64,000 bases of DNA from assembly GCA_038064515.1 (NCBI GenBank), contig JBBTSY010000004.1, positions 96,585 to 160,584 on the forward strand, in the 5' to 3' direction. Below, piece after piece: positions 1,538 to 56,635 of this stretch. Each line of letters starts with the position of its first letter. The first letter of the stretch is position 1. The notes under the pieces are model-generated. The model did no database searches, was not told where the DNA came from, and saw nothing but the letters and a program-made list of their open reading frames with translations. The translations under genes and the position numbers were made by a program. The stretch is from Patescibacteria group bacterium (GTDB lineage: Bacteria; Patescibacteriota; Minisyncoccia; 2-02-FULL-40-12; GWA2-44-9).

Positions 1538-3106
1538 TTATTTATTATGAAGTGCTTCATCTAGAAGCCGTTTGAGTTCGGCCGAATCAACTTCTTTCCT
1601 GGGACGCTCTTCTTTTTTATCCTCTCTTGCGGGAAGTTTCTTGCCTTTGAAATCCACCGGTTCGGCAGCCAGCATATTGCCCAGTGTCGCGTGTTCAGAT
1701 TGAGGAGGCTTTGATACCTGACGTTCTTGGCGCGGTCGTTGATCATACGATCTTTCAGGGCGAGGCCTTCTCGGCGGCATATCACGAGTATTGCGTTCAC
1801 GAGGCGATGAAGACACCATTAATGGTTCCCGCCATTTCGCGATAACTCCCTCCACTTCGGCTCGGGGTTTTCCATACGCCTTTTGGGAAGCTTGGATAAC
1901 CTGTGTTCGAGGACTTACTGGCAGTGGCGCGATAGTATCCATCGTTCTTGCGGAAAATGCATGTGATGCTATGCCGTCAATCATCAGTTTTAAATAAATC
2001 TCCCGCTTGCCGAGATCCACAATATTCTGGACAACAAATTCAGGAGCAAATTCTTTTTCCAGCAACTCGGCATCTTCCGCTCCGACGCGGAATGAAATAA
2101 TACTGCCCACGTTGCCAAATACCGCGTCGGAGACGGCTTCATCCATCTGCGCTATGTATTGATGCGCAACCACCAGGCTCAAGTTGAATTTTCGAGCTTC
2201 AGACAGGATGTTTGCGAATGAAGCAGTGGCAAAATTCTGAAATTCATCTACGACAAGTATAAAGTCTTTTCGTTCATTCCGCGGAATATCAACGCGAGAC
2301 ATAGCGGCAAGCTGGATTTTAGTAATAAGCAGGCCGCCGAGTAATCGAGAAGCATCTTCTCCCATTCTCCCTTTCGAAAGGTTTAAGAGGATAATCTTCT
2401 GCTGATCCATCGCTTCGCGCATATCGAAAGAGGATTTAGACTGACCGACAATATTGCGCACGAGCGTATTAGAAACAAATTGTCCGATTTTATTTTGGAT
2501 GGCAGCTGTTGCTTCGGTGGCGAATTTTTCAGTATACTGGGCAAATTCTTGTTCCCAGAATGCTTTTACTTCGGGGTCTTTCACTTGATCTACGACCCAC
2601 TTGCGATAGCTTTTCTCCGCAAACATACGGTTAATACCGAGTAATGTGGATTCGGGTACTTCCAACAACGCCAAGATCGTATAATTCAGAATATACTCCA
2701 TGCGAGCTGACCACAAATCAATCCAAAGCTTTTTGAATACAGCCATAATTCCATCCGTAACTAAGTGTCTTTTATCGGGATCAACCGATTCCATAACATT
2801 GAAAGCAATCGGATATTCCATGTCCGCCGGATTAATGTAAATAACGTCCTTGATGCGGTGCTCGGGAATATAGTCCAGCAGATCTTCCACCGGATCGCCG
2901 TGCGGATCAATAAATGCCAACCCCCGTCCATCTTGGATATCCTGAATTGCGATGTTTTTCAGCAGTTCCGACTTCCCCATGCCTGTTTTACCGATGATGT
3001 ACATGTGCCGGCGACGATCATCCATTTTAATGCCGAAGGTCACGTCCTTATTGCGGAAGTTTGTTTTACCGAACAGAATGATTGGATTGTCGATTTCTTG
3101 TGCCAT
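1538..3106 (-). CDS. TraD/VirD4/HerA-like (DUF87-type) P-loop NTPase with a basic, Pro/Arg-rich C-terminal tail. Looks like a type IV coupling-protein-like ATPase.
   Basis: Walker A IIGKTGMGKSE followed by FIDPHGD, and Walker B ILVVDEFQNF. Total length 522 aa with a disordered RPRPERSYDQRPRQERQ tail. Confidence 0.55.
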   Translation of the reverse strand: MAQEIDNPIILFGKTNFRNKDVTFGIKMDDRRRHMYIIGKTGMGKSELLKNIAIQDIQDGRGLAFIDPHGDPVEDLLDYIPEHRIKDVIYINPADMEYPIAFNVMESVDPDKRHLVTDGIMAVFKKLWIDLWSARMEYILNYTILALLEVPESTLLGINRMFAEKSYRKWVVDQVKDPEVKAFWEQEFAQYTEKFATEATAAIQNKIGQFVSNTLVRNIVGQSKSSFDMREAMDQQKIILLNLSKGRMGEDASRLLGGLLITKIQLAAMSRVDIPRNERKDFILVVDEFQNFATASFANILSEARKFNLSLVVAHQYIAQMDEAVSDAVFGNVGSIISFRVGAEDAELLEKEFAPEFVVQNIVDLGKREIYLKLMIDGIASHAFSARTMDTIAPLPVSPRTQVIQASQKAYGKPRAEVEGVIAKWREPLMVSSSPRERNTRDMPPRRPRPERSYDQRPRQERQVSKPPQSEHATLGNMLAAEPVDFKGKKLPAREDKKEERPRKEVDSAELKRLLDEALHNK

Positions 3107-3112
3107 GGCGTG

Positions 3113-4393
3113 TTATAGAATTGGAAGGCCTGCGGGCGGCTGGGATTTCTTTGCTTCGACGCGCGGGAAGAGCGGCGCTTTTACGTTAATCCCTGGCAGA
3201 TGAAATAACGTCGCTATTTCTTCGGTACTTAAAATCACCAGCTCTTTAAACTCCCGGGCACGAGCACGCTTGTACATATCGATCTTGCGCTTATACTCCT
3301 CTTGCGATTTCATAAACCCGTTATTTGAAGGGAATAGCCAGGCAAAGTATCCATCGGGGCTGGTGCTGGTAGCTTTGTTCGGTTTAAAAGTGTTTAAGTT
3401 ATTCGAATAGAGCTGTTTAAACATCCCAATCACATTGGAAACGCGGGAACGATTAAAGATATCTTTTTTGGCGATATAGATTAATCGCGGGGTCACTTTG
3501 AACGCAAGCTTAAAGGCTTTGTTTTCGACTTGATCAAGGGTAAACTTTTGACCCGTTGTCAACTTTTGGATGGAAAATTCTTTTTCTTCTTTTTTTACAG
3601 GCTCGCCGGATGCGAATCCAACGAGGCTAAAAACACCGTCTAAGATTTTTTCCAGGAAATTAAGTTTTGCCGGTGGCGGAGTCTTCCCGGCCAACTTAGC
3701 AACCTCCGCCTCAAAGTCCTTTGTCCAATCTCCGCCGGTAGGACGCGCGACATATTGCATCCACATATATTCTCCGGAACCCAGGGAACTTAGCACTTCC
3801 GCTAACGGCGCCAGGGGATCCGTTCGTTTGAATTCGTCTTTCCCTGATTCTTCTTCGAAAAATGGATAGGTTTTAATCGGAAAGGCATCTGATTTTGTAA
3901 ATACCAGTTCAGCGCCGAACATATCATACTCATCGTTGGGAATCTTGGCGGGAAGCTGTTGCATATAGTCTTCCGCAACGGATATTTCCGCATCAGGATA
4001 CTGCGCAAAGATCTGAGTTTCCACGATATTTCGGTTGTCCTCAAGCGTACGGATATAAAATCTGACGTCACCCTGATTGCCGGCGATTTCAAAGCTGTAC
4101 CAATCCGGTACTTTGCCTTCAAAGAACTGCTTTTTTTCGGTAAGAGGCTTGGCATATACGCCATGCAAGCCCGAAAAGAAATTTTCTGCTATTTTAGGAC
4201 TCTTCTCAACATCCGGCGGCGGTTTCACTTCAAGCACGACCCATTTCAACGAGGTAAGATACGCCGTCCGAATATAATTTTTCCAAATATGAACCACGCC
4301 GACCGCAAGAAGGACAGGCCAGTAAAGCCACCAATACGATATGGCAATGAAAAATGCATTGCGAATGCCATCGAACAAAGGGTAGAAATCCAT
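3113..4393 (-). CDS. Membrane-anchored hypothetical protein (N-terminal TM hairpin plus a large soluble domain). It lies 6 nt downstream of the ATPase and is its likely operon partner.
   Basis: N-terminus MDFYPLFDGIRNAFFIAISYWWLYWPVLLAVGVVHIW is hydrophobic. Gene packing is tight. No family recognised. Confidence 0.45.
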   Translation of the reverse strand: MDFYPLFDGIRNAFFIAISYWWLYWPVLLAVGVVHIWKNYIRTAYLTSLKWVVLEVKPPPDVEKSPKIAENFFSGLHGVYAKPLTEKKQFFEGKVPDWYSFEIAGNQGDVRFYIRTLEDNRNIVETQIFAQYPDAEISVAEDYMQQLPAKIPNDEYDMFGAELVFTKSDAFPIKTYPFFEEESGKDEFKRTDPLAPLAEVLSSLGSGEYMWMQYVARPTGGDWTKDFEAEVAKLAGKTPPPAKLNFLEKILDGVFSLVGFASGEPVKKEEKEFSIQKLTTGQKFTLDQVENKAFKLAFKVTPRLIYIAKKDIFNRSRVSNVIGMFKQLYSNNLNTFKPNKATSTSPDGYFAWLFPSNNGFMKSQEEYKRKIDMYKRARAREFKELVILSTEEIATLFHLPGINVKAPLFPRVEAKKSQPPAGLPIL

Positions 4394-4449
4394 TATTCCC
4401 AGTATACCGAAAAAATCCGTAAAAAACTAGAACCTATTTCAATGGGTTC

Positions 4450-5514
4450 TTACGCTTTTCGGAGTGCGTACGTTCCGTCTTCGTTTTTTACGAAGTGAGT
4501 ATTGTCTTGGAGATTCAAAAGAATGGTGTTCTCTTTAACCATGCGTGCGTCCATGACGCGCGCCACGAGATCACTCTTTGCCAAAGGATGGGCAGAGTTG
4601 CGGAGAATATCTACAAGCACCTCTTTAACGGTTCCTGACTTATAACCCCATTCGGCAAGAGCATACATGCCGCGGCCCACGAGCACGAAGCGATTATCCT
4701 TAATCAGTTCGTTATGGACGGTCTGGATATTTACCGATTTCTGATCATTGAAATTGGCAGTATTGATGAGTTTAGCGATATCGGCAAAATGACGGGCTTC
4801 GCCTTCTTTTTTCATAATAAGATAGGCTTTATCGCGAACGCCCTTTGGCCTCACTTCGGGCCACGTAGCCAAACCAACTTCTTTAAAGATGTTCCTGGAA
4901 AGATCCTTGGAGATTGCCATGCACGCAGTAAGTTGTTTTTCTGAAAAGTCTGGGCCATTTGAGGCTACGACGCCTTGTTCAAGGGCAAAGTTGTAAACCT
5001 GCTGTTCCGATACAACCGCGCCTTTCTTTCCGAAAGCGGCGGTAAGAGAGTTAATGACCCGGTGGAGCTGATCAGATTTTTTCTGATCGATCGCCCAAAA
5101 AACATGATAATGATCATTCTCGTCGAATTTTACGAGTTCCTTATTGAAGGTAAGGATAAACGACAAAGAAGCATTTATTGCATCGTACTTCTCGGTGCCG
5201 CTGAACGCGTTGAAAAGATCTCGCTCCTTCATGATGCCACCCTCCTTGGATAATATAGCCTTGATAGCGCTTATATATTTCAGGACATCTTTGTGGTCGC
5301 CCGTTGATTTTGCGAGTTGAGTAAGCGTCGATTCTTCAATCTGCCGGACGCGCTCTCGAGTGATGCTGTAGCTCTGGCCGATAGACTCAAGCGTTTCACG
5401 CTTGCCATTTTGAAGACCAAAACGCCGAGTAACAATATCTCGGTTTCGTTCGGAGAGAGGTTTGATAATACTGGCTATCGTGGCTCTTAATGTTTTGAGG
5501 TCTTGTTTGTTCAT
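4450..5514 (-). CDS. Putative transcription regulator: a sigma-70 region-4-like HTH (N-terminal) fused to a C-terminal HARE-HTH domain. The start is taken as the ATG at 5514; the ORF track alternative is a GTG at 5526.
   Basis: LSERNRDIVTRRFGLQNGKRETLESIGQSYSITRERVRQIEESTLTQL resembles sigma70 region 4. C-terminus ...EARHFADIAKLINTANFNDQKSVNIQTVHNELIKDNRFVLVGRGMYALAEW resembles HARE-HTH. Confidence 0.5.
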   Translation of the reverse strand: MNKQDLKTLRATIASIIKPLSERNRDIVTRRFGLQNGKRETLESIGQSYSITRERVRQIEESTLTQLAKSTGDHKDVLKYISAIKAILSKEGGIMKERDLFNAFSGTEKYDAINASLSFILTFNKELVKFDENDHYHVFWAIDQKKSDQLHRVINSLTAAFGKKGAVVSEQQVYNFALEQGVVASNGPDFSEKQLTACMAISKDLSRNIFKEVGLATWPEVRPKGVRDKAYLIMKKEGEARHFADIAKLINTANFNDQKSVNIQTVHNELIKDNRFVLVGRGMYALAEWGYKSGTVKEVLVDILRNSAHPLAKSDLVARVMDARMVKENTILLNLQDNTHFVKNEDGTYALRKA

Positions 5515-5653
5515 CCTTACACTCACTTAGCATTTGTGGCTTGCCCGTTCGTCTAGCTAGGGGTACCACGCCTGATAGTGAAAACTTAGTTACTTTTTTA
5601 TATAGTATTGACCGCCACACTCCAGAACGCGATGCTAAGTGAGTGTGAGGATT
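5512..5653 (-). promoter_or_regulatory. Conserved ~140-nt leader element (copy 1). A 19-bp long-range inverted repeat (1 mismatch) encloses ~98 nt. The proximal arm GTGAGTGTAAGG abuts the ATG of the regulator gene.
   Basis: Arms are 5515-5533 ccttacactcacttagcat and 5632-5650 atgctaagtgagtgtgagg. A second copy with compensatory arm changes is at 59228-59373. Confidence 0.5.
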
Positions 5654-5710: not shown

Positions 5711-6607
5711 CTACCCCGCTCGACGGCGTGACCACCAGACTAATATCGGCGACGCAACCGCAATGGAGGAAAAGGCGCCGAGCGAGATCCCCAAGATCAA
5801 TGCCAGTGCAAAATATTTCACACTCTCACCGCCAAAAAAGTAGATTGTTACCAACGATAATAGGGTCGTAAGGGTGGTGTTTAATGAGCGCACCAGCGTC
5901 TGCATAATGCTTTGGTGCACTACTTCGCTGAATTGCTCCTTCGAGCCCCCGCGCAGTATATTCTCACGAACACGGTCAAAAATTACCACAGTATCGGAAA
6001 TTGAATAGCCCAAAATCGTAAGTACTGCCGCTACGAAGACGGCACTAATTTCTACGCCTTTATATGCGCCCAGCCAGGCGAAAATTCCCATGGGAATAAC
6101 GAGATCATGGATCAACGCAATGATCGCCGCCGCACCCATCACCCACGCTGGTAAAACTCTGCCTAATTTTTTAAACACGAAGGTAATATAGAGACTGATA
6201 GCGACAAGCACGACAATAATTGCCGTAATACTCTTGTTCTTGAGCTCATTACCAATCAATGGACCGACAGAATCAAACCGCTTTTCCGTTGTGTCCGTAT
6301 TCAGAAACGCTTTTTTTAGAATTGCTAGGATATCTTGATGATCTTTTTCGGAAAGTTCTCCGCTTTTGATGATTATTTCCGAATCACCCACGGGTGATAC
6401 ACCCGCATCTTTCACGTTCGCGATATTGGACTCGTTAAGAATTTTTGCAACTTCCGCAGTAGCCGGACGCTGGGTGAAGTCTAATTCCAAGACGCTACCG
6501 CCCTTAAAATCAACCCCGAAATTAAACCCATATGCGGCCAACGAAATAATTGAAGCCACCACCATGACTACGGAAAGGCTGAAAAGAATTTTATAGATAG
6601 GTCTCAT
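5711..6607 (-). CDS. secF: Protein translocase subunit SecF.
   Basis: 298 aa, multi-TM. Begins MRPIYKILFSLSVVMVVASIISLAAYGFNFGVDFKGGSV and lies immediately downstream of secD. Confidence 0.85.
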   Translation of the reverse strand: MRPIYKILFSLSVVMVVASIISLAAYGFNFGVDFKGGSVLELDFTQRPATAEVAKILNESNIANVKDAGVSPVGDSEIIIKSGELSEKDHQDILAILKKAFLNTDTTEKRFDSVGPLIGNELKNKSITAIIVVLVAISLYITFVFKKLGRVLPAWVMGAAAIIALIHDLVIPMGIFAWLGAYKGVEISAVFVAAVLTILGYSISDTVVIFDRVRENILRGGSKEQFSEVVHQSIMQTLVRSLNTTLTTLLSLVTIYFFGGESVKYFALALILGISLGAFSSIAVASPILVWWSRRRAG

Positions 6608-6616
6608 GATAATCGT

Positions 6617-7942
6617 TTAGCCAAACAGCCATTTAAACCGCTCAAATCTCGGCCCGGAAAACAACTGCAAAAACGATCGAGTCACGATTGTAGCAGTCAG
6701 TAAACTCGTCACAACGCCAATACCGAGTGTTAGGGCAAATCCTTTCACGATCGAACTCGTGAATAAATATAGTCCGGCGGCGCCTATGAGCGTGGTCACA
6801 TGACTATCACGAATAGCAAGCCAGGCGCGATGAAATCCTTCCCGAATCGACTGCTGAAGTGACCGGCCGGCAGCTAATTCTTCCCTCATGCGCGCAAAAA
6901 TCAAGACATTGGCATCCACGGCAATACCCAGCGACAAAATAAATCCAGCAATGCCAGCCAGCGTCAATGTTACCGGAATTAATTTATAAAACATGAGCAC
7001 GATTAACACGTATACCATTAATGCGACGACGGACAAGATACCTGGCAAACGATAGAAAAGGATCATGAATAACGCTACGAGAATAAATCCGTACATTCCG
7101 GCTTTCAAGCTTTTCTCCAACGACTCGGCTCCCAATGAAGCGCCGATCGTCTGCTGTGAAACAAGCTTAATGGGCACCGGTAAGGCGCCAGAATTCAAGC
7201 GGGTCGCCAAAAGCTTAGCTTCATTCGGATTGAAATTGCCGCTGATGACCGCATTGCCGTTAGTGATGGCGGATTGCACCACCGGTATGCTGATGGGGAA
7301 TCCATCCAGATAAATTGCAACCAGCTTTCCAATATTGCGTTGCGTAATTTCTCCAAACAGCTTCGTTCCCTCTTCATTGAGCTCTAAACTCACTTGGGGC
7401 TGATAGGTTTGAGGGTCAAATACTACTTGGGCACGCTTTATGTGGCGCCCGTTAAGACCGGTGGTTTGAAATGGATCCTCGTTGAGTCGCTGGCCCTGAC
7501 CTTGCGCCTCTAAAATTGCCCGTGTATCTGTTTTCTCTTCCCGAAACTCCAAAAACGGAGTTTCGCCGATAAGTTGAATGGCCCGATTTACATCCTGAAT
7601 ACCGGCAAGCTCTACGATAAGACGATCATTGCCGCTTACTTGCACGATTGGTTCGGCAACACCGAATATATTCACGCGTCGCTCAATAACATCGCGGATG
7701 CCGGCCATAGCTTGGTCGGGAGCTTCGCTTACTGCGGAAAGATCAGCCTGGTACACCAAGTGCGTCCCGCCGAGAAGGTCCAACCCTAGCCGAAACGGCA
7801 CATTTTTCACGTGCGGGAGATCAAGAGAGAATTTATTATTGGCCGCATCAACGCCTTTATTGACATATTGGGGGGCGATAAATGTAAAGAGTGCGAGAGA
7901 GACGAGAATAATCGCTGTTAGAATAAATCCGTTGTTTCTCAT
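6617..7942 (-). CDS. secD: Protein translocase subunit SecD.
   Basis: 441 aa with a periplasmic domain and a C-terminal 6-TM region (…LDLLGGTHLVYQ…, …GIAVDANVLIFARMREE…). Confidence 0.85.
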   Translation of the reverse strand: MRNNGFILTAIILVSLALFTFIAPQYVNKGVDAANNKFSLDLPHVKNVPFRLGLDLLGGTHLVYQADLSAVSEAPDQAMAGIRDVIERRVNIFGVAEPIVQVSGNDRLIVELAGIQDVNRAIQLIGETPFLEFREEKTDTRAILEAQGQGQRLNEDPFQTTGLNGRHIKRAQVVFDPQTYQPQVSLELNEEGTKLFGEITQRNIGKLVAIYLDGFPISIPVVQSAITNGNAVISGNFNPNEAKLLATRLNSGALPVPIKLVSQQTIGASLGAESLEKSLKAGMYGFILVALFMILFYRLPGILSVVALMVYVLIVLMFYKLIPVTLTLAGIAGFILSLGIAVDANVLIFARMREELAAGRSLQQSIREGFHRAWLAIRDSHVTTLIGAAGLYLFTSSIVKGFALTLGIGVVTSLLTATIVTRSFLQLFSGPRFERFKWLFG

Positions 7943-8076
7943 GATGAAATTGACTTCTAGATTAAATCATAATACTTTAACCCATGCAAGAAACGTTCGC
8001 TCCCCGCACGAACTCGTGACGTCTTCGCTGAACTACTTCGAATGAGGCTGGGAAAAGAAAGCGCAAAGTCTGACTA

Positions 8077-9546
8077 TTATTCATCTAACGATTCTTTTTC
8101 TTTGCTCTTGGATGGCTTCTGGTTCTCTAGCCATTCTTTGACCAAGAGCGTTGCGCGGACATCGTCTTCATTATAGCGGAGAAGCCGCTTGAGGATAGAT
8201 TCGTCGCCTTTATCGAGCCACTCGTTATACCAAACTACCGACTCTGCCCCGCCAGCGTTGGGGTTATCCCAGCGATAGCCGAGATGATAAGCAATATCTT
8301 TAAGCGTGTAGAAATAGACCGGCAGGACCACGGAATCTACAAACCGTGTATGGAGGTCAATCGTATTTTCTCGAAACTTGTGAATCAGTTCCGTGGGCGC
8401 GCCATACTGAACTACCATGCGATCAAACACCTGGTTTTCATAGTAAGCATAGTGATAGATGACAAAATCATCGAGTGTGACCAGGAAATCCAAAAAATCC
8501 CGCCACATTTTTTGTTCTTCGCTCTTTTCTTTGGCCAAGAAGTATCGGTATTGTGTTTCTTCCGTTTCCGTATTCTTAATCAGCACGCCCAAAAGATAAT
8601 CAATATCGCGCGTCGGATCGCTTTCGATATCAAAGTATACCTCATGCTTTACCTTCGGAAATTCCGGTTTGCGAAGGATCATCGGCTCACCCGATATGAG
8701 AACTTTTGCCTGGTTATTGAGGCGGACTAATTTATCAAATGGCCACTCTTCCAGCTTACTGCGCAGATCATCAAGATTGGCATCAGCCATATCCTGTACG
8801 GTTTTAATGCCGATGTTGTAGAGCTGGCGCTGATCAGATTGACTAAGGCGATGAATGAGCGAAACGTCGTTACAGCCTTGCGCATCAGAGAGGCATACCG
8901 AGTACCAGGGCGTTCGCTTACATCCGCCCTTAAGAAACGGTGCCGGTTTTTCGCCGTTGAGAACTTTTTCAATTTGCTCGCGGGTCAGATGAAACTGATC
9001 AACAAAATCATTTACTAAAAAAGAGCGTTCGTTATTGTTCGCATCAATTACATAGGCTTCTTTGGGCCGCACGCCTTGGAGTTTTTCCAAGATCAAGCTG
9101 TAAAACACGAGCGGAAACTTGAATTCATCCCGAAGATCGAGTGATTGCTGGGCATCATAAGCAACGTAATACCAATCGCCAAATTCTGACTTCTCCGGCT
9201 CGCCTTGAATCTGGTGAAGGGGACGCGCTTCCAGAAGATCGGGCATACCTACCCACTTGCTGCTCATCAATACGCCATGATAGATATTCTTACCCTGCTT
9301 CATGAGTTCCAGCGTTGCTAGAAATGCTTCGTCGAGGTCGCGGAAAAGTTCGGGTTTAATTTCTTCAAATTTCTTGTGCTCCCGAAGCATCGAGCCGGCA
9401 TCGCGCATTTTTCCTTTGAAAATCGTTTCCAAGAGAGGCGCCATCTGTCGCTTTCGCGTAGAGTCGCCATAAATGTCATACCAAATCCAGTGCGGACATT
9501 GGAAAAATTTATAAAAATGATCGGATGTCAGTTTTGGTGTATCCAT
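8077..9546 (-). CDS. RecB-family PD-(D/E)XK nuclease with a Cas4-like Cys cluster and an RNase-H-like C-terminal domain (TM0106-like architecture).
   Basis: N-terminal FQCPHWIWYD, …GMPDLLEAR…, central CKRTPWYSVCLSDAQGC cysteines, and a C-terminal acidic exonuclease-like region (YFDIESDP…, …YNEDDVRAT…). Confidence 0.45.
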   Translation of the reverse strand: MDTPKLTSDHFYKFFQCPHWIWYDIYGDSTRKRQMAPLLETIFKGKMRDAGSMLREHKKFEEIKPELFRDLDEAFLATLELMKQGKNIYHGVLMSSKWVGMPDLLEARPLHQIQGEPEKSEFGDWYYVAYDAQQSLDLRDEFKFPLVFYSLILEKLQGVRPKEAYVIDANNNERSFLVNDFVDQFHLTREQIEKVLNGEKPAPFLKGGCKRTPWYSVCLSDAQGCNDVSLIHRLSQSDQRQLYNIGIKTVQDMADANLDDLRSKLEEWPFDKLVRLNNQAKVLISGEPMILRKPEFPKVKHEVYFDIESDPTRDIDYLLGVLIKNTETEETQYRYFLAKEKSEEQKMWRDFLDFLVTLDDFVIYHYAYYENQVFDRMVVQYGAPTELIHKFRENTIDLHTRFVDSVVLPVYFYTLKDIAYHLGYRWDNPNAGGAESVVWYNEWLDKGDESILKRLLRYNEDDVRATLLVKEWLENQKPSKSKEKESLDE

Positions 9547-9550
9547 ATAT

Positions 9551-9571
9551 TACGCCCCATGACACTTTTTA
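9551..9571. repeat. 21-bp direct repeat tacgccccatgacacttttta, copy 1. The identical copy 2 at 10099-10119 encodes the C-terminus and stop of SecA.
   Basis: Perfect 21/21 identity seen directly. The two copies flank the 9576-10088 peptidase gene. Confidence 0.8.
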
Positions 9572-9575
9572 ATCT

Positions 9576-10088
9576 TCAATTCCTGTCCACAGGAATCGTT
9601 ATCAAGACAGGGCTGTACTTAAGGTGATTCCGCAAGCTATCAATTCCTTTCTTTATAATATCCTTAGGAATTTTCTTCAATCTTCCATCAGCTGGATCGG
9701 CAATTTTTATAGAATCCTTGTCTTGATTTAATGCTACTACGAAGTGTGGGGCGTGAAGAATTTTTTGAAGATAATAACAATCCAGATAAACAATTACTTT
9801 GCCACTCTCCAAAAGTTTACTAAGCAATTTGGCATCAATTTTTTCATTCACCAATTTAACACCATCACCTTTTTGCTTTTGAAGTTGGCTGAAGTAATAT
9901 CTATTTTCAACATGCGCTATAATTTCTTTTTTATACTTATTGGCAACATAATTAAGCTGTCCAATAAGATAATTAAACTTCCATCCGTGTTTCCAGATTT
10001 CTATCTCATCCTTTCTTGTTTTGCCAGTTACAATAAGAAGGCAGCATGGCAAACAAGTTTCGTATGTTGATTGCTTTATTATCTTCAT
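9576..10088 (-). CDS. Papain-like (C39-like) cysteine peptidase-domain protein, 170 aa, markedly AT-rich.
   Basis: QSTYETCLPCC (Gln-x5-Cys spacing) and downstream HAPHFVVALNQD (His/Asp). GC content is visibly lower than the flanking genes. Confidence 0.45.
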   Translation of the reverse strand: MKIIKQSTYETCLPCCLLIVTGKTRKDEIEIWKHGWKFNYLIGQLNYVANKYKKEIIAHVENRYYFSQLQKQKGDGVKLVNEKIDAKLLSKLLESGKVIVYLDCYYLQKILHAPHFVVALNQDKDSIKIADPADGRLKKIPKDIIKKGIDSLRNHLKYSPVLITIPVDRN

Positions 10089-10097
10089 ATTATCTTC

Positions 10098-12728
10098 CTA
10101 CGCCCCATGACACTTTTTATACTTTTTCCCGCTACCGCAAGGGCAGGGGTCATTCCTGCCCACCTTATCTTTTTCGCCGGCATTGATTGTTTCTTGGTGA
10201 GTTGATTCCGGAGCGCTGATATTGAGCGGGCCGCTCTCATGCATCTGCGGTTTTTCGGGAGCCGTTATAAGTTCAACTTTATAGATTACGTTCGCAACCT
10301 GGGCTTTCACGGATTGCAATAGCTGGTCAAAGAGACGCTGGGCCTCAAGCTTATACTCGACAAGCGGATCGCGCTGGCCATAGGCGCGTAGACGCACAGA
10401 ATCGCGTAGATGCTCCATTTGGTCGATATGATCCATCCATAATTGATCAATCGTGCGCAAGAGCACCATCCGCTCTAGCATTCGCATCTGTTCCATGCCG
10501 GTTTTCTCTTCTCTATCCTTATAGAGTCGCTCCAGCTCGTCGCGGACAAAGGTAATCAAATCTTCGCTATGCCCGCCTTTTACTTTTTCGTCCAGCGCGG
10601 ACGTAAATGGCGCGAGCGACTTCAAGCCCTCGGTAAGCTCGGATGAATTCCACTCACCCGTTTCGGTAGTCGCATGGACGCGGATGATATTCTCAACAAA
10701 CTCGTGAACATATCCCATGATTAAATTTCGCAGATTCTCGGCACCAAGGGCTTTTTTGCGCAGATTATAGATGCTCACGCGATGTTTGTTCATCACATCA
10801 TCGTACTCAAGAACATACTTGCGGGCGTCAAAATTGTGACCCTCAATGCGAGTTTGGGCTTGCTGGATAGCGCTTGAAATAAATGAGTTCTCGATAACAT
10901 CGTCATCACCCACACCCATCGTTTCCATAATTTTCTTGAGGCGATCCCCGCCGAAAATGCGGACAAGCTCGTCTTCCGTGGAAACAAAGAATTGAGAAGA
11001 TCCCGGATCGCCTTGACGTCCCGCGCGGCCACGTAGCTGGTTATCGATGCGGCGCGCTTCGTGACGCTCGGTACCGATCACATGGAGGCCGCCGGCATTG
11101 CAGACTTTCTCCGCCTCTCCCTGGTCGGGCGGATTACCGCCTAAGATAATATCAACACCGCGGCCGGCCATATTGGTTGCAATCGTTACGCCGCCATAGC
11201 GGCCTGCCTGCGCGATGATTTCTCCTTCTCGCTCGTGATTCTTGGCGTTTAATACATTGTGGATAATCCCTTCTTTTTCGAGAATTGTTGAAAGTATTTC
11301 ATTTTTTTCAATAGAAACCGTGCCAACGAGTACCGGCTGGCCATTGGCATTGCGTTCTTTGATCTCCCGAGCGATTGCTCGAAATTTCCCCGTTTCATTT
11401 TTATAGATACGGTCTGGAAAATCTTTACGAATCGCCATTTTGTTCGTGGGAACAGAGATGACATCCAGATTGTAGACTTTATGAAATTCTTCAGCGGAAG
11501 TTTTGGCCGTACCGGTCATGCCGGAAAGCTTTTTATAGAGACGAAAATAGTTTTGGAAGGTAATTGTCGCCAAAGTGCGCGATTCATTTTCAACTTTCAC
11601 GCCTTCTTTTGCTTCGATGGCTTGGTGAAGGCCTTCTGACCAGCGCCGGCCGGGCATCAATCGCCCCGTAAATTCATCAACAATGATAACTTCGCCGTCC
11701 TTGACGACATAATCGCGATCAAGTTTAAAGAGCGCCTGCGCCCGCAGCGCTTGTTCCATGTGGTGGACGTATTTAATGCCGCCTTCATCGTAGATATTTC
11801 CCATCCCCAACTGCTGTTCGACTTTTCCGATGCCGCTTTCTGTAATTGAAACCGCTTTTAGCTTTTCATCAACGACATAATCAGTCTCTCCATTGAGATG
11901 CGGGATGATTTTTGAAAAAGTCTCGTAGAGTTTCGGCGATTCGGCATCGGGAGCAGAAATGATCAGCGGCGTACGCGCTTCATCAATAAGAATAGAATCT
12001 ACTTCGTCGACAATAGCATAGGTATGCGGACGTTGAACCATTTCTTGCGCCGTGGGAACGAGATTATCGCGGAGATAGTCAAAGCCAAATTCATTGTTTG
12101 TGCCGTAGGTGATATCGGCGGTATATGCTTCTCGGCGAGCCACCGGCTTAAGAAATTCGTGAATAACTTTAAAGCTCCCCTCAATATCCCGCTCCTTATC
12201 CAGGGCTTCGCCCTCTGCGGCTTTAGCGAACGAGGGATCATAGCGATAGGCGGAATCATGATTTATACACGCAACCGTCAATCCAAGGACATGATAAATC
12301 TGACCCATCCAGACAGTATCGCGGCGGGAGAGATAGTCGTTGACGGTTACGATATGAACGCCTTCGCCGGCAAGAGCATTGAGGTAAGCCGGAAGCGTGG
12401 CCACCAATGTCTTACCTTCACCGGTTCGCATTTCGACGATCTTTCCTTGATGCAAGGCAATGCCACCCATGAGCTGAACATCAAAATGACGTTTTTGAGA
12501 AACGCGGCGAGATGCTTCGCGCACTGCCGCGAATGCTTCCGGCAAGATGCCGTTAAGCAATTCGCCGTCTAAAATCCGTTTTTTAAATTCTAACGTCTTA
12601 TCGCGCAACTGATCGTCCGAAAGCACTTGGAAATCCTTTTCCAGAGCATTAATAGCGTCTACGATGGGCTGAAGTGATTGAATATACCTGGCGTTGGCAT
12701 CACCAAATACGCGAGAAAGGAAAGACAT
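10098..12728 (-). CDS. secA: Preprotein translocase ATPase SecA.
   Basis: 876 aa. Begins [23 protein letters not shown]. Has DEAD motor motifs (…[20 protein letters not shown]…, …[20 protein letters not shown]…) and the C-terminal zinc-finger tail [15 protein letters not shown]. Confidence 0.95.
10099..10119. repeat. 21-bp direct repeat, copy 2 (see 9551-9571). It overlaps the last 7 codons and stop of secA.
   Basis: Perfect identity with copy 1. Confidence 0.8.
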
Positions 12729-48074: not shown

Positions 48075-49688
48075 TTATTTATCTACCGTATAGGCCGAAT
48101 GGATCCAGCCGTCTTGGCCCTTGAAATTGATTTTGAACCAGACACCGATTTGACCAGTTTTTTCATAAACATCGGTCGGTACCATCTTCCCGATAATCAC
48201 ACCGTCGAGAGAAGGAGTTTTCCTGATATTTAGCCAGTTCACGCCTTTCTTAACCCCGAGCGAGCTTTTGACACCAAGCCTAGCAAATTCAGAACCGGAG
48301 ATAACCTGCACATCCGCCCAATTATAGCCGGCGGCGCTAAATTCTTCAATGGTTTTTACCCACGTTAATGCGCCATTTGCTCCTTGCACATATACCTTAG
48401 GGTCATTTGCTTTTCGGAAAAGTGTTGCGCTTGTCGCGGACAAGGGAGAAATTTTTAATTCTGCAAATTCTGGACCTGATATCACCTGTACATCTGCCCA
48501 ATTGTAACCGGCAACATTGAATTCCTCCAAAGTCCTGACCCACGTTAATGCGCCGTCGCTTCCTTGAACGTATACTTTTGGATCGTTTACTTTTCTGAAA
48601 AGCTTAACCGTCTCGGGTGTTGGAGTCGGTGATGGAGTCGGACTCGGTGTTGGTGATGGCGAAAGAGTAACTATCGGTGTCGGAGTAGGCACTGGAGCAT
48701 CTCCGCCGGAAACATTACTTATCGGATTTATAACAGCAAGTGTTTGACTGTCGCTTCCCGTGGTCCTATCAGCGTACGTTCCAGTTGTTACCCGTAATGT
48801 TGATACGCCTGTATATTGAGCGAGAACCCCGGTATTTGCTAATGGTACGGGGCAATACCAATAACCTTCATTCGCGCTTGTTCCTATAGTACAAGTAGTT
48901 CCATAACTATCCCCGGCCAAAACAGTTCCTGATGTTAATTTGGAAGTTTCAAAAGTGCCGCCAGTTTGCCATACCTGTATTTTATGGCCAAATAGGAGGC
49001 CGCTTTCATTCAGAGTGCTATTGTCGGCAGTTCCGAAATCAACTGATTGGGATGCCGTAGCAGAAACAGTCAGGGCCGAAGATGTTCTATTTACATAACC
49101 ATTAGCGCCTCCGGTAACGGTCCCGCCACTGGTTGAGGCGCCGATATATCTCTTGCCGCCACTATACGACTGTGAAGCAACTGTCCCGCTGTATGCAGCC
49201 GAAGCCGTAGTGCCGTTTAATGTTAAAGCTGTGTTTAATTCATCAGTAACCCCGTTCACTAAAATCGTATAATCCATGCTCGCTCTGGTGGTAAAGGTAA
49301 TATTACTGCCCGCACCCGATACCGTGTCTGTTACCAATCTTGAGACCCAGCCGTTAAAAGATGCGGTGGCCGTTATGGCTTCACCGGCATCGCAGCCCGC
49401 CCGATTAGAAGCATTTTCTGCTGAGCTTGAGGCAATTTTTATGATGCCGTCCAGGAGATTTGTGCTTTCTGAAGCTGTACCATCTGTAACGACGCCCTCA
49501 CCCGAACCATTACATTTATAGGTAATGGTTGCCCCGCTTGAGCCATAATAAGCGGGAACATCAAGTTCGGTATCGATCCGGAAAAAATAGAAATCTTCGG
49601 CAAAAGCAGATCCCGGGACAGAGACGAAAAAAAACACAACCAGAAGCAAAACTGACAACAGTTTGTTCAATTTCATTACTCTTATCAT
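48075..49688 (-). CDS. Secreted surface protein. Signal peptide, Gly/Thr/Ser-rich β-region, Pro-Thr-Ser linker, two tandem NDPKVY…GYNWADVQVISG modules and a C-terminal SH3b-like domain.
   Basis: Linker PTPIVTLSPSPTPSPTPSPTPTPE. Modules FRKVNDPKVYVQGSDGALTWVRT… and FRKANDPKVYVQGANGALTWVKT…. C-terminus …VNWLNIRKTPSLDGVIIGKMVPTDVYEKTGQIGVWFKI…. Confidence 0.55.
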   Translation of the reverse strand: MIRVMKLNKLLSVLLLVVFFFVSVPGSAFAEDFYFFRIDTELDVPAYYGSSGATITYKCNGSGEGVVTDGTASESTNLLDGIIKIASSSAENASNRAGCDAGEAITATASFNGWVSRLVTDTVSGAGSNITFTTRASMDYTILVNGVTDELNTALTLNGTTASAAYSGTVASQSYSGGKRYIGASTSGGTVTGGANGYVNRTSSALTVSATASQSVDFGTADNSTLNESGLLFGHKIQVWQTGGTFETSKLTSGTVLAGDSYGTTCTIGTSANEGYWYCPVPLANTGVLAQYTGVSTLRVTTGTYADRTTGSDSQTLAVINPISNVSGGDAPVPTPTPIVTLSPSPTPSPTPSPTPTPETVKLFRKVNDPKVYVQGSDGALTWVRTLEEFNVAGYNWADVQVISGPEFAELKISPLSATSATLFRKANDPKVYVQGANGALTWVKTIEEFSAAGYNWADVQVISGSEFARLGVKSSLGVKKGVNWLNIRKTPSLDGVIIGKMVPTDVYEKTGQIGVWFKINFKGQDGWIHSAYTVDK

Positions 49689-50244: not shown

Positions 50245-51303
50245 TTAGCGGGTATATATGGGCACCTGATTAATCGAGGTATAATCTGAACCCTTAGCAT
50301 ACCAGTTAAACTCGTTAGAGTTTATACAGAATACTTTTTTGAAGAAATCGGGGTCATCGGCTACGGCTTGAGCTCCCGAAACGTTGACCCAATGAAGTAT
50401 GCCTGCATCCTCGCCTGTTGTTTCAATGCCATAAACCTTAGGGTCATTGGTTTCACAATTCCTGAAAAGACCAGAGGTTACAAGGATGATCCCGGTTGAT
50501 GACACAACATTTTTAACTTGAGCAAATCCGCCTAAATGGCCATAGAAACTAAATATGACTGGATTCAGAAATAATCTCTTATAACCCCAATCATTAACAA
50601 TATAGATGTCGGGGTTGCCCGAACCAACAGCGCTAATTGTGTTTCCATCACTTAAACCTAAAGCATTCAGACCGGTAAATCCGAGCGAAATTGGGTTCGG
50701 CAGGATCGTTGGAGCAGGAGTTTCCGTCGGAGACGGATCGGCCGACGGCTGGGGTGTCGGGGCGGGCGTAGGAGTCGCTACGACTCCAGGCAAAGTCAAA
50801 GTATTGCCATATATCGGAACGCCTATTAAGGTCGGCGCAACCAGAGTTGGAAAAGTGAATCCACTGAAACCAAGACGGACATTACCGGCCGCGGAAGACG
50901 AAAGACTCGCTTTGACTAGATATGTCTTGGGTGTGCCGCCATTTCCTATAATAACATCCCCAAATCGGATTAAGTTGGGATTTGCGCTCTGGTTGGGATA
51001 CGTACCTTTCAGAGTTGAGGTAGAAGTAACGTCATATATATAAATGTTGGTAAAATTACTCAAACCACCCGATACATCCGTATTCAAATAAATACCGTTC
51101 AAATACACATCGCCAACTGACGCGGTTAAAGTAATTCGCGCCACATCAACATATTGGGCGCCAGCCGATAAACTTTGAGCCAGAGGCGTTTCGTTATGCA
51201 ATGTCGCAGTCAGCGCCGGCACTTCCTGGGCAGATGCGTATGGCGATAAGCTCGAAAAGGAGCTGACCAATAACAGGGTCAATATCAAATATTTTATATT
51301 CAT
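50245..51303 (-). CDS. Secreted protein with a ~150-aa C-terminal module that is paralogous to the N-terminal module of the giant protein at 51410-54790.
   Basis: Signal peptide. C-terminal …DIYIVNDWGYKRLFLNPVIFSFYGHLGG…FRNCETNDPKVYGIETTGEDAGILHWVN…NEFNWYAKGSDYTS… versus the giant protein's …DIYIVNAPGYKRLFLNPVIFNFYGHLGG…FRNCETNDPKVYGVETTGEDTGILHWVN…. Confidence 0.55.
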   Translation of the reverse strand: MNIKYLILTLLLVSSFSSLSPYASAQEVPALTATLHNETPLAQSLSAGAQYVDVARITLTASVGDVYLNGIYLNTDVSGGLSNFTNIYIYDVTSTSTLKGTYPNQSANPNLIRFGDVIIGNGGTPKTYLVKASLSSSAAGNVRLGFSGFTFPTLVAPTLIGVPIYGNTLTLPGVVATPTPAPTPQPSADPSPTETPAPTILPNPISLGFTGLNALGLSDGNTISAVGSGNPDIYIVNDWGYKRLFLNPVIFSFYGHLGGFAQVKNVVSSTGIILVTSGLFRNCETNDPKVYGIETTGEDAGILHWVNVSGAQAVADDPDFFKKVFCINSNEFNWYAKGSDYTSINQVPIYTR

Positions 51304-51409: not shown

Positions 51410-54400
51410 TTACTTCGTCAAAGTTTGACTCTCTGCCAATGTCTTTAGCATACCATCAGTAAACCAGTCATCCGTTGTAGTGGCATGGCTAGCTGCTGAT
51501 GAATCGGTCCAGACAAAGGAGGCGCCAGAATTTCGCTGAACTGTTGAATCATCCGTAGTCACCGTTGTTCCCTTTGGATTGGTGATGCTTGTGGTTACGC
51601 TTTCATTAGTCGCAAGCGTACCACCTACGGTTGTCTTCAATTCAAGGATGATAGGGGTTCCCGCAGAAATCACACGCTCGACAGCAAAGGTGAACTCTAC
51701 GCGAGTAGTAGTACCAATATCGCTGACGCTGGCGGTGCTAGAACCAGAGAAAGAGGTGATATCAATGCCATTCTCATACAACTTCCAGCCTGCCGCTGCA
51801 GGACCGAATGTCCCGGCTAGTGAAGTTGAAGATACGGTGAAAGTGATATTATTCCATCCCACCTGACTACCGGTTGCGCTGACTTCTGTCTTGAATAATG
51901 TCTGGGTGCCAGCGCTTAAGGCCGTAGTAGACAAAGCTTTGTTAGCAAAGGTCGGATAACCTTTGACAACATAGTTGGCGTTACCGGTAAAGCTTGCCGG
52001 AGCATAACCGTTTTCAGTGGTTATGGCACCCGCGCTATCTCGGAACTTCAAGCCGTCCAATTGGACAGTTACATTGCCGGCAGTATCGTTTGCTCCGACA
52101 CCGACAGCAGATGTTACCACATCCACAGTGAAGGTCTTAGTACCCTCTGATTGAGGCATAAGTAAGTCAAGACCGGTGAATGAAGCAGAAGACGTTGACG
52201 AACTAACCACAGCTGAACCAATAACCGTTCCGACACTGTTCTTCAATTGAAGATTAGCAACCGCACCCGAAGACGATGCCAACGTGCTTGAAAGATCAAC
52301 ATAGACCTCATCAAGATAGTAGTCATCATACGTCGGCGTAAGGGTGAACTGATAACCAGTTACCGTTGAACCACCATTTACGAATCGGGCCGATGGAAGC
52401 GAACCATTGGCTTTCGTCAATGCACCGGTCTGGGAAGTTATCGTTTGACCGGCAACCACACTGGATGTGGTTGAAGTGCTGGAACCCGCAGTGGTGCCAG
52501 TTGCGCTAAACGCAAGTCGGACTGCATCCAGAGCGGTAATACCGGCCTCAACATTTGCCCAAACCTCAATCTGATAGGTCTTGTTGGCAGGCAATGAGAA
52601 GTTTACCGCGAAGCTTGTGCTCGCGCTTTCGGACATAATGGCCTTGACCGGCGAAGTGTACACAAGAGAACCCGCGTCGTTCCAAACTTTGATGTATGAA
52701 TCATCTAATTCACCACCATCAAAGGTAACACCGGTTACCAACTGCGGCATTATGTCAATTGAACTGACATTAACACTTTCCGATGAAGCGGCGGTTAAGG
52801 TGAAGTGACCAACTTTAACATTGTTCTTCGGATCAACAACCGACTGGTTGGCATAACCGGTATATTTACCGGCCGTGAGTGAACCAATTTTAATGGTTAA
52901 GGATGTTCCAGTCTTTGCGGCGCTTGAAACATAATCCAATGTCGTCAAACGCTGGACATTTGATGAGCCGACAGCAAAGTTTGCGGTAAAGGTCTGGTCA
53001 GCCGCGACATCATTTGTACCGCTGGCATCAAAGATGTCAGCTCGGATTTCCACAATTCTCGGTGTTCCCGGAGTAACAATCAATGAGGAACCCAAGGAGA
53101 CTTGTGCGTAGGCAGTACTGTTTGATGCGGCTGGCGAACTATCTTCCCAAAGGGTTGTTGTAGAACCAACCTGTACGCCATCAGCGAAGATAGCGGCATT
53201 GCGAAGAGCTAACAACGCGGTCTGACCGCTACTGTTATCAATACGAAGATTTTCAACTTTCATCTTCTCACCGGCGGCCTTGAACTCAAATCGAGACAAG
53301 ACAACGCCAGAAGCGCCTTTTACAACATTGCCGGAAGGTGAATCAGTCGTTTTGGTGATAGTTAACGTGCCTGAAGCAATATTTTGGGCAGTAGAGCTTA
53401 CCGGGAATGTGCCGGTTGCCAATACTGAAGCGCCGGCATACTGGGAATCAACGGTCCAGATATCGGATTTCTGCCTCAAAGAAAGGTAGAAATTCTTGCC
53501 CGAACCACCAATTATATCAACCAATACTTTGAATGTTCGGCTTCCGGTTTCAAGCTTGACCGGGCTAGCCGTCATATCAAACACGATATAGCCGTTAGCA
53601 TCGGCTTGAGCTACGGTGGAACCCTGCTGAACTCCATCAATCAAAAGACGGAAATTCTGGAGGTCCCCTGCCGCTACTGAACCGATAACTCTATACTGAA
53701 CTGATTTCAGCCAAACATATCTGGTGCCGATAGTTACAGCATCATTCCAAGCGACAAAATCACTTGCGGGAACCGGAGCTCCATCTGAAGACGGGGTTAC
53801 ACTCGCAGATAACGCTGTCGTGGCTTGGGTGGCAGTGGCAAGGGTATGCATATTGCCAGAAATGCTATAAGCAACACCGTTCACACTAGTGAGCTGAACA
53901 CCAATGGTCTCGCCAGCCGTTCCGTCAACATCGGCCAAAACCGAGATGACCTTGGAGCCGGATACTGTGAATAAGCCAACGGCATCGTTGAACGAAACAA
54001 CACCGCTTGAAACGGTAGCCGCATCGGTCAAACGCTTTACACCGTCATACAGATAGACATTTGTTAATGTCGCATCCGCTGATACGCCAATTCTGTTTAA
54101 TTTCACATTAGTAACGGCTCCATTACCGCCAAACATGAATTCAGCTAAGTTGTATCTGGCCTGTCCGTCCACAATTGTTCCGGAAGCTGGGTTTGAAGAA
54201 GCCAAGCTTACCGATAACGGGCCAGTTGGAGGAGGCGTGCCTCGTACATAGTTTGGTACTTGGCTTACTGACGTGTAGTCAGCGCCCTTGGCGTACCAGT
54301 TGAATTCGTTGTTGTTGATGCAGAACACCTTATTAAAGAAGTTTGCATCATCAGCAACTGCTTGCGCTCCAGAGGTGTTTACCCAGTGGAGGATACCGGT

Positions 54401-54790
54401 GTCTTCACCGGTGGTTTCTACACCATAGACTTTAGGATCGTTGGTTTCACAATTTCGGAACAAACCCGAAGTTGGGAACGCATCGCGGGTCGTAGCGGCT
54501 ACGTTTTTCACAGCGGGGAAACCGCCGAGATGGCCGTAGAAGTTGAAAATGACTGGGTTCAAGAATAATCTCTTGTAGCCCGGAGCATTTACAATGTAGA
54601 TATCTGGATCGGACGATCCAGCTGCTGAAATCGTGTTTCCTTCTTGGAGACCGAAGTCAGCTGGGAATGCGGCAGATGCTTTAGGAGCATAAGCGGCGAA
54701 TCCGGCTAGCGACAACATGGTCGTTAGCGCTGTGAGAACAGCAAAGGTCTTTTTCAAAACCTGGAGCCGTCCCTTGGATACATTACTCAT
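51410..54790 (-). CDS. Giant (1126 aa) secreted cell-surface protein (S-layer / adhesin-like). Signal peptide, N-terminal shared module, then long Ser/Thr/Gly/Ala/Val-rich β-repeats.
   Basis: MSNVSKGRLQVLKKTFAVLTALTTMLSLAGFAAYAPKASA. Composition bias is strong and no catalytic motifs are evident. Confidence 0.55.
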   Translation of the reverse strand: MSNVSKGRLQVLKKTFAVLTALTTMLSLAGFAAYAPKASAAFPADFGLQEGNTISAAGSSDPDIYIVNAPGYKRLFLNPVIFNFYGHLGGFPAVKNVAATTRDAFPTSGLFRNCETNDPKVYGVETTGEDTGILHWVNTSGAQAVADDANFFNKVFCINNNEFNWYAKGADYTSVSQVPNYVRGTPPPTGPLSVSLASSNPASGTIVDGQARYNLAEFMFGGNGAVTNVKLNRIGVSADATLTNVYLYDGVKRLTDAATVSSGVVSFNDAVGLFTVSGSKVISVLADVDGTAGETIGVQLTSVNGVAYSISGNMHTLATATQATTALSASVTPSSDGAPVPASDFVAWNDAVTIGTRYVWLKSVQYRVIGSVAAGDLQNFRLLIDGVQQGSTVAQADANGYIVFDMTASPVKLETGSRTFKVLVDIIGGSGKNFYLSLRQKSDIWTVDSQYAGASVLATGTFPVSSTAQNIASGTLTITKTTDSPSGNVVKGASGVVLSRFEFKAAGEKMKVENLRIDNSSGQTALLALRNAAIFADGVQVGSTTTLWEDSSPAASNSTAYAQVSLGSSLIVTPGTPRIVEIRADIFDASGTNDVAADQTFTANFAVGSSNVQRLTTLDYVSSAAKTGTSLTIKIGSLTAGKYTGYANQSVVDPKNNVKVGHFTLTAASSESVNVSSIDIMPQLVTGVTFDGGELDDSYIKVWNDAGSLVYTSPVKAIMSESASTSFAVNFSLPANKTYQIEVWANVEAGITALDAVRLAFSATGTTAGSSTSTTSSVVAGQTITSQTGALTKANGSLPSARFVNGGSTVTGYQFTLTPTYDDYYLDEVYVDLSSTLASSSGAVANLQLKNSVGTVIGSAVVSSSTSSASFTGLDLLMPQSEGTKTFTVDVVTSAVGVGANDTAGNVTVQLDGLKFRDSAGAITTENGYAPASFTGNANYVVKGYPTFANKALSTTALSAGTQTLFKTEVSATGSQVGWNNITFTVSSTSLAGTFGPAAAGWKLYENGIDITSFSGSSTASVSDIGTTTRVEFTFAVERVISAGTPIILELKTTVGGTLATNESVTTSITNPKGTTVTTDDSTVQRNSGASFVWTDSSAASHATTTDDWFTDGMLKTLAESQTLTK

Positions 54791-56555: not shown

Positions 56556-56635
56556 CCTGCCTGCGCAGGCAGGCTTTTCAGGAGCATTGCATTAAGGAGG
56601 GATAATAATTCAATACACCTGCCTGCGCAGGCAGG
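56556..56635. repeat. Two perfect 18-bp palindromes CCTGCCTGCGCAGGCAGG (56556-56573 and 56618-56635), 62 nt apart, in the leader region of the LTD gene.
   Basis: Seen directly. Confidence 0.6.

Follow-up and report, generated by a model that had tools for sequence, protein, structure and literature searches.

How does a lone gene of low GC content come to lie directly behind secA, between two exact copies of the end of that gene? The question is raised by a 64,000-nt stretch of a Patescibacteria genome (GenBank assembly GCA_038064515.1, contig JBBTSY010000004.1, positions 96,585 to 160,584; here called the window), in which secA is followed by a short gene for a papain-like cysteine peptidase. 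The exact 21-mer TACGCCCCATGACACTTTTTA occurs twice, at 9551-9571 and at 10099-10119, and a sequence search found no further site in the 64 kb even with 3 mismatches allowed (0 expected from 100 shuffles). The SecA C terminus reads ...YKKCHGA; its codons lie in or next to the upstream copy, and the stop codon TAG occupies 10098-10100 on the minus strand. We think it reasonably probable that the 527-bp segment between the two copies is a single-gene integrative cassette without an integrase of its own, inserted in an attachment (att) site that consists of the last ~20-25 nt of secA and served by a recombinase acting in trans.

The insert (9572-10098) contains a single open reading frame (ORF); 9 nt precede its ATG and 4 nt follow its stop codon. 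Its GC content is 0.32-0.35 against 0.41-0.53 in the flanks (~0.47 around), and the peptidase gene, at 0.34, stands apart from its neighbours at 0.46-0.49. An initial annotation of this DNA had described both 21-mers, with the right-hand copy as the ...KKCHGA end of SecA, and between them a low-GC segment whose sole gene encodes a 170-aa papain-like peptidase with a Q-x5-C motif. Sequence search and ORF reading confirmed the former, and the latter held as well, with a measured length of 527 bp and Pfam scores above thresholds. The identical arrangement with both 21-mers is present in two independent assemblies from other samples (L001, L002), which rules out an assembly artefact. A dispersed or terminator-like repeat, which the initial annotation had named as a competing possibility, was ruled out too: the 21-mer has 2 copies in the window, no terminator is present on the gene strand between secA and the downstream nuclease gene, no Rfam family matches and no tRNA gene lies nearby. 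Also rejected was a transposon or miniature inverted-repeat transposable element, as no inverted repeat pairs the two cassette ends and the duplication varies from 10 to 38 nt. A direct-repeat scan within 4 kb gave this pair alone as meaningful, and no other such cassette was found in the window.

If the insert and one repeat copy were removed, secA would abut the nuclease gene (Table 1). The TAA of the displaced downstream copy is followed by TAT and then by the nuclease ATG (9546-9544), which starts 3 nt past the stop codon of this remnant, and the copy probably doubles as the translation-initiation region of the nuclease gene. No promoter or terminator signal above chance was detected between the secA, peptidase and nuclease genes. 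The fold of the 71-nt stretch 9530-9600, which comprises the hairpin at the peptidase 3' end and the downstream repeat copy, was not significant (z = -1.7). Separately, positions 9579-9590 at the peptidase 3' end match the secA VGRN codons at 10152-10163 in 11 of 12 nt; about 0.5 such matches are expected by chance, the match is absent in the sister genome L030 and we made no use of it.

Table 1. Features at the secA 3' end in the window (window coordinates)
Feature	Coordinates	Strand	Basis or remark
secA, target gene, 876 aa	10098..12728	-	ORF and Pfam SecA_DEAD, SecA_PP_bind, P-loop_SecA, SecA_SW, SEC-C
Upstream (functional, attL-like) 21-mer copy	10099..10119	-	TA-AAA-AAG-TGT-CAT-GGG-GCG-TA, end of SEC-C zinc-finger codons
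9-nt spacer GAAGATAAT, secA stop to peptidase ATG	10089..10097	-	purine-rich Shine-Dalgarno-like stretch across stop and spacer
Cargo gene, 170-aa papain-like (C39-like, DUF3335) cysteine peptidase	9576..10088	-	Pfam, homologs, AlphaFold2 (AF2), Foldseek
Perfect 8+8 hairpin ATTCCTGT / ACAGGAAT	9579..9596	-	last peptidase codons, just inside right cassette boundary
4-nt junction AGAT, peptidase stop to downstream repeat copy	9572..9575	-	agat/aaat/aat in closest cassettes
Downstream (displaced, attR-like) copy, non-coding remnant '(Y)KKCHGA-TAA'	9550..9571	-	22 nt including stop
TM0106-family RecB-like nuclease, 489 aa, RNase_H_2 domain	8077..9546	-	far side of variable slot

Scans of genome and metagenome collections yielded 28 peptidase loci. 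The peptidase gene directly follows secA in 16 of them, 1-13 nt past the secA stop (further in three), in hosts whose SecA proteins are 50-65% identical. The spacer between secA stop and peptidase ATG measures exactly 9 nt in six of the ten loci with a full secA, and three secA-linked loci have a spacer sequence resembling that of the window. In most loci with a recognizable copy, a copy of the genome's own secA end stands 1-4 nt past the peptidase stop. This downstream copy matches the local secA end at 21/21 positions in the window (z = 13.6), at 17/17 in L004 (z = 8.0), where the sequence is a different, host-specific one, TTTAAGCAGTGCCATGG, of the unusual FKQ version, at 19/22 in L030 (z = 6.8) and at ~25/29 in L017 (z = 8.2). 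Decayed copies match at 15/18 in L013 and 12/14 in L012, and those of L018, L007, L011, L006 and L003 are decayed too. The repeat lengths vary among loci (10, 17, 21, ~29 and 38 nt). Over 270 kb of loci, the motif AARTGYCAYGG (at most 1 mismatch) occurred 57 times on the gene strand vs 10 times on the other, and the position of the upstream 21-mer copy is the recombination junction in other loci as well. The initial annotation had named as refuting evidence relatives with the peptidase gene at this position and no repeated 21-mer; what the relatives carry is a repeated secA end. The two copies can differ in their last codons: in L012, L004 and L007 the functional copy has HGA-stop (...GGGGCGTAG/TGA) at its end, like that of the window, but the displaced one has HGK(K)-stop. 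Thus, the incoming element seems to supply the new gene end.

Pairwise identities of SecA and of the peptidase are uncorrelated (Spearman 0.015). Between the window and its sister genome L030, SecA is 94%, the nuclease 97.5% and SecD 97.5% identical, but the peptidase 84%; between the window and L012, SecA is 65% and the peptidase 85% identical. The peptidase of L030 is no closer to that of the window than those of L012 or of L024, whose SecA is 56% identical. The synonymous divergence (dS) between window and L030 amounts to 0.69 for the peptidase gene vs 0.20-0.33 in four flanking genes. Low identity between these two genomes extends from a point ~120 nt ahead of the secA stop as far as the peptidase stop; because this tract starts in the SecA linker, which is variable by nature, no left boundary can be assigned to any replacement. 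In 20 of 20 loci examined, the GC content of the peptidase gene lies 3-17 points below that of the host. The peptidase phylogeny thus does not follow that of SecA, and these results support the view that the cassettes have moved between lineages.

The same loci might be read as vertical inheritance, with the peptidase as an old functional neighbour of secA in one operon and the repeat as a local duplication kept for the ribosome-binding region of the next gene. The widespread secA-peptidase adjacency with its tight 9-nt spacing would suit this, as would the absence of a terminator between the genes and the position of the remnant immediately upstream of the nuclease ATG. However, the uncorrelated identities, the sister genome with twice the synonymous divergence in its peptidase and the GC offset in all 20 loci speak against it, and so do the lineage-specific repeat versions with their element-type vs host-type tails, the unrelated genes found in the slot with the same repeats and the peptidase genes at pheT and dnaK that are described below. 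We regard vertical descent as highly improbable.

Relatives found via the downstream nuclease share the synteny secA ... nuclease-secD-secF-sigma70-DUF8128, and in them a hypervariable interval separates secA from the nuclease-secD-secF-sigma70 block. In L032 this interval contains a MazG-like gene, with ...AAGAAATGCCATGGGAAATAG (the secA end) before it and ...AAAAAGTGTCATGGAAAATAG 8 nt past its stop; a weak and irrelevant match was all that PADLOC gave for this cargo. In L057 a DUF952 gene occupies the slot, followed by a decayed remnant and the same 'GGGAT' spacer. With three unrelated cargos, the remnant has its left edge at one and the same place, the Y/F codon. Arrays of 3-4 secA-end copies, with short segments or small ORFs between them, were found in L012, L013 and L028.

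Some further features of these slots were recorded. Between secA and the peptidase gene of L028 lie two small ORFs (736-1161 and 1151-1507), the first of which ends in a full SEC-C motif of its own (CYCGSGKKFNNCHGK-stop), while the second is a 118-aa zinc-ribbon-like ORF. In the same interval of L013, at 2940-3160, there is a ~145-nt tandem duplication of the type 'RCHGA-stop plus decayed SEC-C motif'; with this duplication counted, four or five secA-end copies are present in 750 nt. L034 (~1960-2045) and L057 (1-105) encode an alternative SecA C terminus, KKCG-L(I/L)NS(P/E)EHQ...stop, without the last zinc-finger His of SEC-C, and it breaks at the codon where the cassettes join. At 4001-4036 of L031, the start of the nuclease homolog contains an in-frame tandem 18-nt duplication (ATGACTGATACTCCAAAT twice), possibly a scar left by recombination at the opposite edge of the variable slot. 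L032 carries, between nuclease and secD (6471-8028), a bAvd gene and an RVT_1 reverse transcriptase, resembling a diversity-generating retroelement.

An integrative cassette would produce this architecture as follows. The mobile form, circular or otherwise, would carry, one after the other, the peptidase stop, 1-4 nt, (Y)KKCHG(A)stop, ~9 nt and the peptidase ATG, with ...GTGGACAGGAATTGAAGAT-TAAAAAGTGTCATGGGGCGTAG-GAAGATAATATGAAGATAATAAAG as the expected circle junction, where one repeat joins the 3' end of the peptidase gene to its 5' end. Its secA-end mimic would recombine with the chromosomal secA end; at an empty site, the secA body would run straight into the downstream tail, ...GGTAGCGGGAAAAAGTATAAAAAGTGTCATGGGGCGTAATATATGGATACACC. 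After integration, the upstream copy would keep secA intact and the promoterless peptidase gene would stand 9 nt behind the secA stop, to be expressed by read-through or coupling from secA. Expression from secA transcription is suggested by the lack of promoter and terminator signals in between. The old secA end would be displaced downstream as a non-coding remnant and would still offer the following gene its ribosome-binding region. Most likely the recombinase would act in trans, and its best candidate is a family of Xer-like tyrosine integrases, present in phages and patescibacterial genomes, whose members appear to recognize the secA end as attB and to bring along the same mimic as attP. 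We infer excision, the circular intermediate, mobilization in trans and the position of the crossover.

The candidate family came to light when viral contigs were screened by a degenerate scan for SecA-end codons. Three of its members, on two phage contigs and in one prophage, are accompanied by an orphan mimic of the SecA end 450-770 nt past the integrase gene. The 37-kb phage contig L039 encodes an Xer-like tyrosine integrase together with an HNH gene and, ~770 nt on, has the orphan, stop-containing mimic ccctgtggacgggtgaagtagTATAAGAAGTGCCACGGAGCCTGA. More than 400 homologs share 55-65% identity with its integrase, and all named ones are patescibacterial. On a second phage-like contig, L054, the integrase is 60% identical to that of L039 and a similar mimic lies ~680 nt past its gene. 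On the Parcubacteria chromosome L053, the order prophage genes, integrase, decayed remnant, NUDIX, secD, secF places the prophage in the same slot. In L059 the secA end is followed by the phage genes Gam/RecT, L061 has an orphan mimic followed by phage genes including RecT, and in L047 an integrase gene precedes an ORF with a SEC-C end at the provirus edge. These findings suggest that a family of patescibacterial temperate phages uses the secA 3' end as attB. Together with the lineage-specific repeats, the incongruent trees and the other cargos, the phage mimics support the proposal of the initial annotation that the locus is the footprint of integration at the 3' end of a conserved gene, with the core sequence restoring that gene. 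As a separate observation, proviruses of isolate genomes (L041-L046, L048-L050, L052) encode a protein other than SecA with a terminal SEC-C motif, 934 aa long where the ORF is complete in the locus.

Resident prophages also allow the cassette to be what is left of a larger prophage or island at the secA end, deleted to one cargo gene between attL and attR and no longer mobile. Full prophages occupy or appear to occupy the site in L053 and L059, the slot of relatives holds multi-gene islands and the cassette has no mobility gene, all in keeping with such decay. However, many distantly related hosts share the same minimal form (~9 nt, ORF, 1-4 nt), with peptidase and host trees in contradiction, and independent decay would not converge on identical boundaries. 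No peptidase homolog was found on viral contigs, and the peptidase itself is under purifying selection (dN/dS 0.14, window vs L030). Decay of this kind has little likelihood in our view.

Several results weigh against an integrase-dependent cassette. As the initial annotation had noted, the cassette has no integrase, on which ORF list, Pfam and tblastn agree; Pfam found none among 20 ORFs of the window either, and tblastn with the phage integrase as query returned no homolog from the window or from any of the peptidase loci. Homologs of the peptidase were not found on IMG/VR viral contigs. The empty site that the initial annotation expected in relatives did not appear: in none of seven related contigs, chosen for close homologs of the downstream nuclease, is secA directly followed by the nuclease gene, and their slots hold other genes, in L032 a different cassette with the same flanking copies and in the others larger islands. 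The multi-gene islands in the slot of L034, L036, L037 and L038 come with no remnant. A tyrosine recombinase with a short, fixed overlap predicts element-specific and host-specific arms, yet the copies are identical throughout in the window (21/21) and L004 (17/17), and target duplication or recombination anywhere in the homologous stretch fits this full-length identity at least as well. Furthermore, the peptidase gene uses other places: in L016 (34/38), L005 and L008 it lies just upstream of pheT, flanked by a duplicated pheT start, and in L009, L027 and L029 it lies by or upstream of dnaK with no repeats. A secA-specific integrase would not explain these locations. The remnant in L008 resembles the pheT of another lineage (WLKSYV type) and not the host's WLKEYV, and a search of viral contigs for a phage mimic of the pheT start gave no match.

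The main alternative is spread independent of any dedicated recombinase, in which naked DNA carrying the cassette and short copies of the secA end is taken up and joined by RecA-type or illegitimate short-homology recombination. This could proceed through a single crossover of a circle or through a double crossover, with the SEC-C codons as left arm and a carried remnant as right arm. The variable repeat lengths, the identity of both copies over host-specific sequence in the window and L004, the pheT 5'-end duplications around the same cassette, the foreign remnant type in L008 and the missing integrase nearby are all consistent with it. The target sequences belong to the most highly conserved of coding termini, and restriction-modification (RM) units that have long target duplications and no mobility genes offer a precedent (PMC2853133). 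However, 15-25 nt is very short for RecA-type exchange and the breakpoints are strikingly constant, at the Y/F codon edge for three unrelated cargos. Orphan mimics stand beside phage integrase genes, so a dedicated enzyme for the site probably exists. On balance we consider short-homology spread rather unlikely and keep to a cassette moved by a recombinase in trans.

A broader proposal, which we put forward tentatively as a possibility, is that the secA 3' end in Patescibacteria serves as an integron-like capture platform. At a simple site of ~25 nt in the SEC-C codons, an Xer-like recombinase, phage-borne or possibly chromosomal, would insert, stack and exchange promoterless single-gene cassettes that are expressed by read-through and translational coupling from an essential gene with constitutive transcription, and an analogous system may act at the pheT 5' end. 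The cargos found so far are the C39-like peptidase, the MazG-like protein, DUF952 and small SEC-C proteins. Patescibacteria (candidate phyla radiation, CPR) have tiny genomes and few characterized mobile elements, and little is understood of how they acquire accessory genes. Our data suggest that gene gain here takes a compact path used time and again, in which promoterless single genes dock on the last codons of an essential gene, where patescibacterial phages appear to dock as well. If a simple-site Xer-like integrase indeed mobilizes these cassettes, they would constitute a minimal natural gene-capture system of ~0.5 kb, a marker for tracking horizontal transfer in uncultivated lineages and a candidate integration tool for organisms without genetics.

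Several known systems invite comparison. Cis-mobilizable elements (CIMEs) of Streptococcus are att-flanked, lack recombination genes and are mobilized by the integrase of a related integrative and conjugative element (ICE). The cassette shares with them the attL/attR-like repeats at the 3' end of a protein gene, the lack of an integrase and integrase-bearing elements that appear to use the same site. In contrast, it is far smaller (0.53 kb, one ORF, almost no non-coding DNA), its presumed helper is an Xer-like phage integrase in Patescibacteria, unrelated single-gene cassettes and arrays share the site, and mobilization in trans is here presumed. Integron cassettes likewise consist of a promoterless ORF with a short site, are placed in one orientation behind an expressed locus, form arrays and rely on a tyrosine recombinase encoded outside the cassette. 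Unlike in integrons, there is no IntI/attI/Pc platform at the cassette, no integrase nearby and no Rfam match; the site is coding sequence (the SEC-C end) and not an attC hairpin with extrahelical bases, no hairpin being significant, and the arrays are short, with at most 4 remnants.

Temperate phages and ICEs can also target the ends of protein or RNA genes, with a substitute for the gene end present in attP. SXT integrates in the 5' end of prfC. The temperate phage phiEf11 is described as integrating in ffs (PMC12540744). As with such elements, the target end is duplicated and restored, the att core lies in highly conserved sequence and, in L039 and L054, the integrase gene lies beside the putative attP; unlike them, the window element has no integrase, regulatory, replication or packaging genes. 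Furuta et al. 2010 reported RM units, mostly in competent species, with low-GC inserts, target duplications of 30-400 bp and no mobility genes, including one with a 46-bp repeat overlapping a gene 3' end (PMC2853133). The cassette resembles this 'insertion with long target duplication' in its lower GC, its lack of mobility genes and its direct duplication of a unique target, which can overlap a gene 3' end. It differs from those cases in that its repeat in the window is 21 nt long (their criterion was 30 bp), though 38 bp in L016, in its peptidase cargo and in the repeated use of the same target across the phylum, and no related genome with a single copy of the target was found; moreover, the functional copy can have element-type sequence, which points to att-type exchange over plain duplication. 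By analogy, the cassette would stand closest in concept to cis-mobilizable att-flanked elements and integron cassettes, with the target logic of gene-end integrators. It is distinct in its compactness (one ORF and ~35 nt), in SEC-C codons as the site, in its several cargos and short arrays and in its occurrence in Patescibacteria. No mention of integration at the secA end was found in the open-access literature.

The cargo matches Pfam DUF3335 'Peptidase_C39 like' (PF11814) with 35.7 bits (gathering threshold 25) and Peptidase_C39 (PF03412) with 24.7 bits (gathering threshold 22). The Q-x5-C motif corresponds to Q6 and C12, and no substitution of Q6, C12, H112, H115 or D131 occurs among 28 aligned members that are 48-88% identical to the query. 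We found 89 homologs, nearly all of 150-190 aa, and the named ones come from metagenome-assembled genomes of Patescibacteria. An AF2 model (predicted local distance difference test, pLDDT, 95.1; predicted template modeling score, pTM, 0.92) matched papain-like enzymes in Foldseek with probability 1.0, including the C39 domains of ComA and of PCAT1, a peptidase-containing ATP-binding cassette (ABC) transporter (TM 0.57-0.61), with an identity of only ~14% to any solved structure. Further best matches were the non-peptidase papain-like enzymes CtaG and a phytochelatin-synthase-like protein, as well as a papain-like toxin. A search for a close structural relative of viral origin gave generic papain-like matches alone, and defence-system and NCBIfam libraries gave no match. 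Sequence and model predict that the cargo is a cytoplasmic papain-like enzyme with an intact active site, either a cysteine peptidase or an acyl-transferase, and our results flag this conserved family as horizontally traded.

The papain-like fold with Q-x5-C, His and Asp is common to this protein, DUF3335 and the C39 domains of PCAT/ComA. Unlike the latter, it is a stand-alone cytoplasmic protein without signal peptide or transporter, and its gene has secA and the nuclease gene as neighbours. The initial annotation had suggested that it might process a GG-leader peptide. This received no support: no ABC/PCAT exporter is fused to or adjoins the peptidase, and a strict regular expression applied to the small ORFs of the window found no leader, which is a weak negative. 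DUF3335 had a single mention in the literature, in a classification paper.

Additionally, the window contains several features away from the secA end. Three ~40-nt repeats rich in GGTGACA/TGTCACC lie at 56236-56352 and 56556-56635, a region in which the 18-nt palindrome CCTGCCTGCGCAGGCAGG occurs twice, 62 nt apart. A 226-nt direct repeat (50254-50479 vs 54248-54473, 70% identity) links a 352-aa and a 1126-aa ORF, and a 537-aa SH3-domain ORF includes a 140-nt tandem-like repeat at 48283-48602; SH3_3 was the only Pfam domain detected in these three large ORFs. Beside secF-secD, the block at 1538-5526 encodes a TrwB/VirD4-like and DUF87 ATPase, a sigma-70/HARE-HTH protein and, where relatives encode a DUF8128 protein, a 426-aa ORF with no Pfam match. 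All relatives examined have retained the sigma-70/DUF8128 part of the block.

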